NCBI RefSeq assembly: GCF_988243305.1
Contig: NZ_OZ547137.1
Strand: one strand, 5' to 3'
Length of the DNA: 64,000 nucleotides
DNA from: a plasmid
This document shows positions 51,001 to 54,000 of the stretch, in pieces. Within the stretch, counting starts at the first letter, position 1. Each line of letters starts with the position of its first letter. A program made the position numbers.

Positions 51001-54000
51001 GAGATCAATTCATAAAAATCTCTCTGCGACAGAAGCCATTTTTCAGCACTTTGATCTTGTGTAAGAAATGACTCATGAAACAGCGTATTGCAAAAAATAA
51101 ATTTTCCAGTTTCGTCCCTGATACAGGCTGGATTTGGATAATCCTGAATAACTGCCGTCAGATTTTCCAGCAGATCTATTTGACGAGCATGTTTTTGTTG
51201 AATACGATCCATCGGATACATAGGAACCTCCTCACAAAGGATTCTATGGACAGTCGATGCGGGGAGGAGAACTCCCTGCATCGGCGATTTTCAAATTCAA
51301 ATTTTAACGTGGCATTAACCACGTAATTAATATACTAATTATCTTTCGTACTGTCACCTTTTTAAATCATAAAAACTCTGATATTTGAACGAAGTCAAAT
51401 TTCTTTTATTCATCATCATTTTTTGGAAAAAATCGTTCCATCTCAGATGATACCTTCTCCCTGATATCTTCAACCATATTGGCATATTCAAACTTTGGAT
51501 TTCCGGAGACATGAGGACTGAGAGACTCAATACCCAAAATTTTCGCTACTGATGATTGTGTTTTTACAACGCATTCAAGAAGCAATTTATTAAACTCAGT
51601 CTGATTAAATGCAGACTCTTTACGCTCCATCTGAGCCTCATATACACGAAGCCCCAGTTCAAGAAGCATTGAAGCTGTTGCTGAAAAACTGACATCTTTT
51701 TCCCTTGCCCCTTCCTGTCGACGCTTCTCAATAATCGAATTTATTTTTTCATAGGCATCATTGCTGATATACAGGTTCACCTTAGCCATTAGAGATTACC
51801 TTTTTTGAACATAAAATAAAGTTAATTTCGGAACACTAAAATTCATAATACAAACAGGGACGCACCGCTAGCAGCGCCCCTAGCGGTATCCTATAAAAAA
51901 ACACACCGCGCCGCTAGCAGCGCCCCTAATATAAAATGATGTTTTTTATAAAAATAGTCAGTACCACCCCTACAAAGCGGTGTCGGCGCGTTGTTGTAGC
52001 CGCGCCGACACCGCTTTTTTAAATATCATAAAGAGAGTAAGAGAAACTAATTTTTCATAACACTCTATTTATAAAGAAAAATCAGCAAAAACTTGTTTTT
52101 GCGTAGTGTGTGGTGCTTTTGGTGGTGAGAACCACCAACCTGTTGAGCCTTTTTGTGGAGTGGGTTAAATTATTTACGGATAAAGTCACCAGAGGTGGAA
52201 AAATGAAAAAATGGATGTTAGCCATCTGCCTGATGTTTATAAATGAGATCTGCCATGCCACTGATTGCTTTGATCTTGCAGGCCGGGATTACAAAATAGA
52301 TCCTGATTTACTGAGAGCAATATCATGGAAAGAATCCCGTTACCGGGTTAATGCCATCGGTATTAATCCGGTAACGGGATATGGCAGCGGACTGATGCAG
52401 GTAGATTCCCAGCATTTTAACGAACTGGCCCGCTATGGAATTAAGCCGGAACATCTGACAACAGATCCCTGCATGAACATTTATACCGGTGCTTATTATC
52501 TGGCAATAGCCTTTAAAAAATGGGGCGTCTCCTGGGAGGCCGTTGGTGCATACAATGCCGGATTCAGGAAGACCGAACGCCAGAACCAGAGACGTCTTGC
52601 CTACGCATCAGAGGTTTACCGGATTTATACCAGGATAAAAAGCAGTAAAGGTATCCGGATTCCGGTCACGAAGAAATCACTTCCAGAAATTAACAGCGTG
52701 CAGAACAATTAATCTTACAGACATTGTCAGATACCGGTTATGCCGCAAAAGCGGCATGAAGGCTACACACAAAAATATCATATGAGTGACAATGCTGACT
52801 GGCCGAAGCCCCGCGAAGCGGGAACCCATCTTATATATACCCGGTAACTGCGCAGCCTCCTGCCAGACCATTTTTCGCGGGCACAATATTTACAGACAAC
52901 CGGAAAGCCGGTTGATGGAATTGAGGTATATCAGACGACACAGCGATGCCGAAGAATGATAATATAAGTAAAGCCCCGAAAAATTTTCGGGGCTTTACTT
53001 ATATTATCATGACTTCCACTTTCTGAACTGTTCGGCAATCACCCATAACGCCTTGTTGATTCTTATATCACCATCAATACCTGTAATGGCTCTTGTCCTG
53101 GTATTTTTCCCGGAGGCACTTCGCCCCGATAATCCACCTTTTATCATATTCTCCTGAACCCGCTGCCAGGTTGTCCAGAGATCGTTCTGTTTATCTTCCC
53201 GACGACGGGGAGTAATTATTTGTTCAGGCGTCACTGGCGTTTTATTTTCATCTTCATACCTGACCATCAGTGCAGCTCTGCCAAATAAATGTTGCTCGTC
53301 ACTGTTAAGATGAATTTCTTTCATCGCCTCCATATTATCAGTGACCTTATCAAAGACACCGAGCACTTCATACGCTCCCTCGATAACCTGCCCGACAATA
53401 TCACCTTTATGTGGAACACGGATTTCGCCAAAATTATTTCCGCACACCAGGCCATTTGTGCAGACAAAACGAAAAATTCCGGGGATCATCTGATAACTGG
53501 ATGAACCATCATGTGAATTAAGCAGGATAATTTCAGGAACTTCCTGCCCGTTAATATGCCCTTCCCTGCGAAGGCGTAACATATGTTTACTGTATTCGCG
53601 GCGTCCCAAATCACGAACCCGACTCTGACAGGCAAAGAATGGCTGGAAACCTTCATCACGTAACTTATTGATGATATTGATTGTTGGAATATACGTATAA
53701 CGTTCACTCCGGGACTCATGTTTATCACCGGAAAATACCGAAGGCACGAACTGCATTAATTCATCATCCGTTAAAGGACGTTCACGACGGATGGAATTAT
53801 ACCGACCAAAACGGGAAGCTAATCGCATAACAGCTACTCCTTTATGAAAGGATAAATTTAATAAAAAATTTTTCCGCTTAATATCATCCCTCCCGATCTC
53901 CATTAACAAGATTGCAACAATCAGGAGGGATATTCATCACATCCGGTCAGCAGATCGCCCGGATATCGAGGCCGGCACGCTTAATCTGACGCAGGAACTG

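Follow-up and report, generated by a model that had tools for sequence, protein, structure and literature searches.

The window, a 64-kb stretch of DNA, belongs to an F-like plasmid, and within it a long palindrome (52956-53010) adjoins the oriT-proximal leading region genes. To its left lie traJ (50532-51281, − strand), traM (51406-51789, − strand) and the rightward geneX, also called ygfA or orf169 (52203-52712, + strand), which encodes a 169-aa SLT lytic transglycosylase (Pfam SLT, E = 5e-22); a non-coding spacer of 243 nt (52713-52955) runs from the geneX stop to the palindrome. To its right, all on the − strand, lie ygeA, or orf273 (53007-53828), encoding a 273-aa DUF932 protein (Pfam DUF932, E = 2e-52) that is 100% identical in many F-like plasmids, then a ygeB remnant (53950-54166), hok/sok (Rfam sok match at 55173-55349) and psiA (55455-56174). 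Upstream of ygeB, the transferred (+) strand carries a long imperfect stem-loop of the Frpo1 type, ~260 nt in length (~54240-54500), and the 571-nt segment holding it has a predicted folding energy of −144.6 kcal/mol (z = −9.3). The sequence-only reading had placed the palindrome between the convergent geneX and 273-aa gene, overlapping a stop codon. Its location is correct, though geneX ends (52712) 243 nt leftward, and the overlap is confirmed, as the right arm takes in the ygeA TGA (53007-53009) and the third position of the sense codon before it.

Couturier et al. 2023 name geneX ygfA and the DUF932 gene ygeA (PMC9849209). They report that ygeB-ygeA is transcribed from Frpo1 on the single strand as it enters, that ygfA, which is oppositely oriented, comes to be expressed only once the DNA is double-stranded, and that deletion of ygeA lowers conjugation to ~4% (PMC9849209). 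The position of the 54240-54500 stem-loop upstream of ygeB-ygeA agrees with this description of Frpo1, making it the likely single-stranded DNA (ssDNA) promoter of the transcripts that would end at the palindrome. It is the window's + strand that is transferred, and this strand is the ygeA template; the zygotically induced operon next to oriT therefore has its 3′ end at the palindrome. The palindrome lies ~1 kb in from the 5′ terminus that enters first.

An inverted-repeat search delimited a perfect 55-bp palindrome at 52956-53010, ATGATAATATAAGTAAAGCCCCGAAAA-A-TTTTCGGGGCTTTACTTATATTATCAT, in which two 27-nt arms (52956-52982 and 52984-53010) are 100% complementary and flank a single central A at 52983. 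The earlier description of a perfect palindrome therefore stands, whereas its extent of 53 bp (52957-53009), with 26-bp arms, falls one A:T pair short at each end. This is the longest short-loop inverted repeat within the window, and its arm length is far beyond chance: when the window was shuffled 100 times with dinucleotides preserved, the longest perfect hairpin arm was 9.4 nt on average and 12 nt at most. The 55-mer alone has a predicted folding energy of −37.6 kcal/mol as RNA, with a full stem of 26 contiguous pairs, and of −26.5 kcal/mol as DNA, the latter bearing out the proposal of a stable hairpin on the transferred (+) strand. In a 107-nt context, the corresponding values are −47 kcal/mol for RNA and −31.1 kcal/mol for DNA (z = −9.5 for both).

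At the centre of the palindrome, the GC-rich core stem-loop GCCCCGAAAA-A-TTTTCGGGGC (52973-52993; −14.0 kcal/mol as RNA) would be the terminator hairpin proper. It is flanked by A- and T-rich runs that are exact mirror images, such that the same tail, TTTACTTATATTATCAT, follows the stem in both directions. On the + strand, this tail (52994-53010), which is at the same time the outer right arm, would supply rightward geneX transcripts with their U-tract; its mirror image (52956-52972), which reads TTTACTTATATTATCAT on the − strand, would do the same for leftward ygeA transcripts and forms the outer left arm. The U-rich tract directly 3′ of the core, UUUACUUAU in both directions, is imperfect and interrupted, with U at 6 of 9 positions. 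A consensus scan returned 8 terminator-like calls in the region against 2.6 expected; at the site itself it placed three overlapping calls, on the − strand only, with longer stems and the tail UCAUUCUU. Resemblances of the palindrome to Rfam families were all sub-threshold and involved terminator parts of leaders and small RNAs, and an Rfam scan of 51.5-56.5 kb yielded, apart from sok, only sub-threshold hairpin or terminator parts of unrelated families.

Whether geneX transcripts meet the palindrome depends on the 243-nt spacer. Two small hairpins lie within it (52741-52757 and 52898-52918), both without U-tracts, and with no earlier terminator in the spacer, geneX RNA probably reaches the palindrome. 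No gene is annotated in the spacer among related plasmids. A 57-aa ORF (52786-52959) was rejected as a gene, having no Pfam match and never being annotated in relatives; its TGA, located in the left arm, is the mirror image of the ygeA stop. We also rejected the spacer as the remnant of a DUF5983 gene, which occupies this place in IncFIIK plasmids, since tblastn gave no match.

We then turned to conservation. With a 67-nt query around the palindrome, we recovered it in 4,527 plasmid records from Escherichia, Klebsiella, Salmonella and Shigella, always at the same locus, and it is present at that locus in 2,786 of 5,426 complete E. coli genomes (51%). Conservation across F-like plasmids, which the sequence-only reading had proposed to check, thus holds, with the palindrome neither absent nor degenerate in close relatives. 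A dispersed repeat or mobile element was rejected: each plasmid has one site, and the apparent second place arises because a palindrome also matches itself when read from the other strand. NC_002483 was among the records used. Among 24 F-like copies, comprising 17 distinct haplotypes, the GC core is invariant, as are most arm positions; the A/T loop ranges from 9 to 11 nt in length, with A, T or G at its centre. Comparison with Salmonella pSLT-like plasmids shows 5 differences in the 55 positions of the palindrome and 58 in 173 flank positions (Fisher p = 2e-4).

Changes within the arms largely preserve pairing. We counted covariation over the 26-pair helix in the 17 F-like haplotypes, using 500 shuffles per strand and slid controls, and found both-side changes in 4 of the 26 pairs. 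Two of these occur in Salmonella — G:C to A:T at arm position 3, where the stop TGA becomes TAA, and T:A to C:G at position 8 — and the others are T:A to C:G at position 14 in L008 and a transversion pair, A:T to C:G, at position 7 in L079/L080, the one extra variant given by the metagenome scan described below. All four double changes restore exact complementarity. On both strands, all 500 shuffles fell short of the covariation score and of the number of both-side-changed cells; as many as four both-side pairs arose in 0 of 500 shuffles for the + strand and in 2 of 500 for the − strand. Every slid control lost pairing, down to 37-49% paired. Read as the − strand, that is, as ygeA mRNA, 99.8% of cells are paired, versus 98.4% on the + strand; the difference stems from three single transitions in L007/L009, which form G.U pairs in ygeA-sense RNA and A.C mismatches on the + strand. 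These transitions, confined to one lineage, offer a weak hint that the ygeA RNA, and not the transferred-strand (T-strand) DNA, may be the selected molecule.

Beyond the F-like plasmids, a protein-based DUF932 scan of species-representative genomes identified homologues with 32-70% identity in Serratia, Hafnia, Cedecea, Xenorhabdus, Leminorella, Pseudomonas, Brucella and several MAGs. Most of the homologues examined are followed, ~5-60 nt from the stop, by an unrelated GC-rich hairpin with a stem of ~8-14 bp; one of those examined, in L030, showed no hairpin after the DUF932 gene. In the IncFIIK plasmid pK232_KPC, the order is DUF932 gene, its own hairpin, DUF5983 gene, and a 9-bp bidirectional terminator facing the SLT gene. 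Position and function are therefore kept while the sequence is replaced, a turnover typical of terminators.

To place the length of the palindrome in context, we compared it with hairpins sharing its core. When metagenomes were scanned for the core by itself (GCCCCGAAA, 2-6 nt, TTTCGGGGC), almost all of the matches listed came from unrelated soil and water contigs, and more than 115 unrelated contigs carried the same core, which marks it as a generic terminator hairpin. In these 115 listed unrelated copies, pairing beyond the core mostly spans 0-5 nt, with five reaching 11-14 nt and none longer, whereas F-like copies pair perfectly for 17 nt beyond the core. The palindrome had been called unusually long for an intrinsic terminator, and this assessment is upheld both by the comparison of 17 nt with at most 14 nt in the listed unrelated hairpins and by the ~8-14 bp stems of the DUF932 relatives. 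Judged from these sequence comparisons, the palindrome lies in the extreme tail of the known length distribution, not outside it. No comparable palindrome was found at the other operon ends of this leading region, which argues that extreme length is not a general requirement for termination on a single strand.

Taken together, the GC core with its mirror-image A/T tails, the position at an operon end, the maintained pairing and the unrelated hairpins in relatives argue that the palindrome is very probably a bidirectional intrinsic (Rho-independent) terminator of unusual length. It combines a GC stem and short loop with a 3′ U-rich tract, lies at the 3′ end of a transcription unit and has kept its pairing in evolution; the convergent units and the symmetric A-tract and U-tract point to use in both directions. 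We infer the rightward role, for geneX, from the absence of an earlier terminator over the 243 nt that separate the end of that gene from the palindrome. With bidirectional terminators between convergent genes, the palindrome shares a GC stem-loop, mirror-image A- and U-tracts, placement at or after a stop codon, and turnover of sequence at a conserved position. It differs from ordinary examples in its 17 nt of pairing beyond the core and its interrupted U-tract, as well as in receiving one of its transcripts from a single-stranded template early after conjugation (PMC9849209).

For this terminator, we propose the following course of events, inferring that transcripts do end here, how efficiently they do so and what the extension contributes. 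A transcript from either side would fold the GC stem GCCCCGAAAA/UUUUCGGGGC, followed by the U-rich run UUUACUUAU, and polymerase would release it. The main client would be the leftward ygeB-ygeA message, made in the new recipient from the incoming single strand at Frpo1, which would be ended at its stop codon before it could run antisense into geneX and oriT. After conversion to double-stranded DNA, the rightward geneX message would end at this hairpin too. The 17-nt A/U-rich extension would allow the RNA stem to keep zipping over the weak rU:dA hybrid, so that termination would be efficient over a long zone and the mRNA would be left with a very stable, protective hairpin at its 3′ end. In the searchable literature, we found no RNA 3′-end data for F-like plasmids, and searches covering orf273/orf169, gene X and leading-region terminators returned no description of this hairpin, which the original accounts of the F leading region (Loh 1989, Manwaring 1999) may mention.

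The palindrome exceeds the length that termination requires, and the covariation of its outer arms bears on what else, if anything, the extension does. Covarying positions 3, 7 and 8 fall within the outer 9 bp, 10-15 nt past the GC stem, and intrinsic terminators usually release RNA at 7-9 nt. A normally terminated RNA would therefore lack both partners at these positions, and selection on terminated RNA alone does not obviously explain the three outer covarying pairs. Zipper extension, RNase III and arm-to-arm template switching may each account for them, and are mutually compatible. According to the last of these, the perfection of the outer arms would be unselected, with the core alone functional: quasi-palindrome template switching, an established E. 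coli process (PMC7202029), copies a mutation from one arm to the other, keeping the palindrome perfect and mimicking compensatory evolution. Such copying would yield exactly what is seen at all four double changes, including the A:T to C:G transversion pair in L079/L080, and two independent rearrangement junctions inside the palindrome (L001 and L155) suggest that the site is structurally active as DNA. The plasmid pUO-SeVR1 has lost the DUF932 gene, its right arm breaking off after CGGGGCTTTA; in pKP12226, the left arm continues as far as AAGTAAAGC and then gives way to unrelated DNA. However, L007/L009 retain three single changes that were not corrected, and the ~4-fold lower divergence of the palindrome than of its flanks in the Salmonella comparison calls for purifying selection, not correction alone, leaving this explanation possible but rather doubtful. 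The extension could instead act as a fail-safe against read-through, in addition to the terminator and not in its place. RNase III needs at least ~20 bp of dsRNA, and the lambda sib site provides a precedent. By analogy with lambda sib/tI retroregulation, RNA stopped at the U-tract would carry a stem of ~16-18 bp, and only read-through RNA would complete a 26-27 bp duplex and become an RNase III substrate, such that antisense read-through into geneX/oriT, or into ygeA, would be destroyed. Both sites would place a terminator stem inside a longer potential duplex that only read-through RNA completes; the palindrome differs in having a perfect stem that would serve both directions. The predicted full RNA stem of 26 contiguous pairs (−37.6 kcal/mol), the compensatory changes at positions 3, 7 and 8, where only read-through RNA has both partners, and the G.U character of the single changes in ygeA-sense RNA all fit this scheme. 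Hairpin effects at the DNA level predict the same covariation, though, and distant relatives manage with short hairpins, so we regard a read-through fail-safe as unlikely. A related and decidedly improbable idea is that the outer 9 bp keep their pairing for a further function connected with conjugative entry. RNase III may, by the same analogy, destroy Frpo1 transcripts that read through toward oriT, or a hairpin in the single-stranded template may supply a local duplex that permits termination; the latter could help because the entering DNA comes without the non-template strand that would displace the RNA.

The remaining alternatives assign the palindrome a role as DNA. On the transferred + strand, the hairpin might act as a roadblock to synthesis, a priming signal or a duplex recognized by a protein, in line with its predicted stability (−26.5 kcal/mol), its location ~1 kb from the entering 5′ end and the stem-loop roadblock precedent of ssp2 in F (bioRxiv 10.64898/2026.01.09.698686). 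Fraikin et al. reported that the large ssp2 stem-loop stalls complementary-strand synthesis and that ssp1 and ssp3, though large, do not (bioRxiv 10.64898/2026.01.09.698686); a 27-bp hairpin is a possible roadblock, and this analysis lends it no support. The L007/L009 single changes, moreover, are A.C mismatches on the T-strand and G.U pairs in RNA, and distant relatives have short hairpins only. The priming role suggested in the sequence-only reading finds no backing, with no DnaA box within 500 nt and no −35/−10 pair in the stem. The DnaA box TTATNCACA is absent from the stem, its nearest matches with at most one mismatch lying at 52234 and 53512; a −10-like hexamer is the sole promoter element in the stem, which is too short to rebuild a −35/−10 pair, and the only promoter-like match (9/12) has its −35 outside. 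We rejected an ssDNA promoter of the Frpo/ssi class on size, energy and the missing −35. The DNA hairpin, at −26.5 kcal/mol, is far weaker than the window's own Frpo1-type stem-loop and several-fold weaker than ssDNA promoter hairpins generally, for which Wen et al. mined leading regions with a threshold of < −75 kcal/mol (PMC12672017). Like Frpo/ssi promoters, the palindrome is a predicted hairpin on the transferred strand of the same leading region, but Frpo-type elements are imperfect ~260-nt stem-loops that rebuild a −35/−10 pair, in contrast to a perfect 55-nt hairpin at an operon's end and not its start. Considered together, these observations make a T-strand function highly unlikely. 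A dyad-symmetric operator for a dimeric protein on double-stranded DNA has only the perfect two-fold symmetry in its favour and appears extremely improbable: half-site spacing shifts by 1-2 bp among variants, matching double changes restore pairing and not recognition by an unchanged protein, and the core is a generic hairpin present in unrelated organisms. The protein-binding structure raised earlier likewise does not fit, because a centre that varies from 9 to 11 nt and arms that change together are signatures of base pairing and not of a dimeric protein site.

The palindrome is thus most likely an element of an ordinary kind, a bidirectional intrinsic terminator whose function is conserved and whose sequence is not, and nothing in this analysis supports priming or protein binding. 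Its identification is useful for annotation and for the design of leading-region constructs, and leaves understanding unchanged. More broadly, it touches on how intrinsic termination proceeds on a single-stranded template, for which a long, covarying palindrome is a convenient test object. Its relevance to F transfer is that the early operon next to oriT, Frpo1-ygeB-ygeA, has its 3′ limit here, where the hairpin probably insulates oriT and geneX from the early burst of transcription.

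On the transferred strand, a stem-loop of about 260 nt resembling Frpo1, the single-stranded DNA promoter that drives ygeB-ygeA, is predicted at window ~54240-54500, and the 571-nt segment that contains it has a predicted folding energy of -144.6 kcal/mol (z = -9.3). A small hairpin followed by the same tail (GGCGGGTCCCTGCC CGTTGTTGTG) occurs identically at 54488-54501 and at 59810-59823, consistent with the duplication of Frpo1 and Frpo2 already described in F. The ygeB homologue itself, compared with the 95-aa protein of F, occupies two reading frames on the - strand (53950-54166): the first 27 residues align at 54166-54086, and the C-terminal portion aligns at about 54093-53950. 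The split may reflect a frameshift, an allelic variant or an error in the sequencing. In F, Couturier et al. (2023, PMC9849209) were unable to obtain a deletion of ygeB alone.

Two small hairpins, at 52741-52757 and 52898-52918, lie in the spacer between geneX and the main palindrome, both without U-tracts; in F, the second carries two G-to-A changes that are mismatches on the + strand and would pair as G·U in - strand RNA. Elsewhere in the window, a second perfect palindrome of 44 bp (1561-1604), with 22-nt arms (TCATCATTAATGCTAATGTATG/CATACATTAGCATTAATGATGA) and no spacer, is AT-rich and lacks a GC core. An ORF for an IS110-family transposase on the - strand (445-1509; Pfam PF01548 and PF02371) starts 52 nt away from this second palindrome. 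For the main palindrome, 79 of the 5,856 places matched across E. coli genomes were on chromosomes rather than plasmids, and presumably represent integrated F-like elements.

The A/T run at the centre of the main hairpin (window 52979-52987; columns 31-41 of alignment A1) is a slippage hotspot, with alleles that include AAATTTTTT in F, AAAAATTTT in the window and, further, AAAATTTTTT, AAAAATTTTTT and AAAGTTTTT; between otherwise identical plasmids, the single central base switches between A and T. In other plasmids, two independent rearrangement junctions fall within this palindrome. The pUO-SeVR1 copy (L001, about 3008-3040) has its right arm broken after CGGGGCTTTA, with DUF932 gone, and the pKP12226 copy (L155, 2501-2526) retains the left arm as far as AAGTAAAGC, followed by unrelated DNA. 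The main palindrome may be a fragile site.
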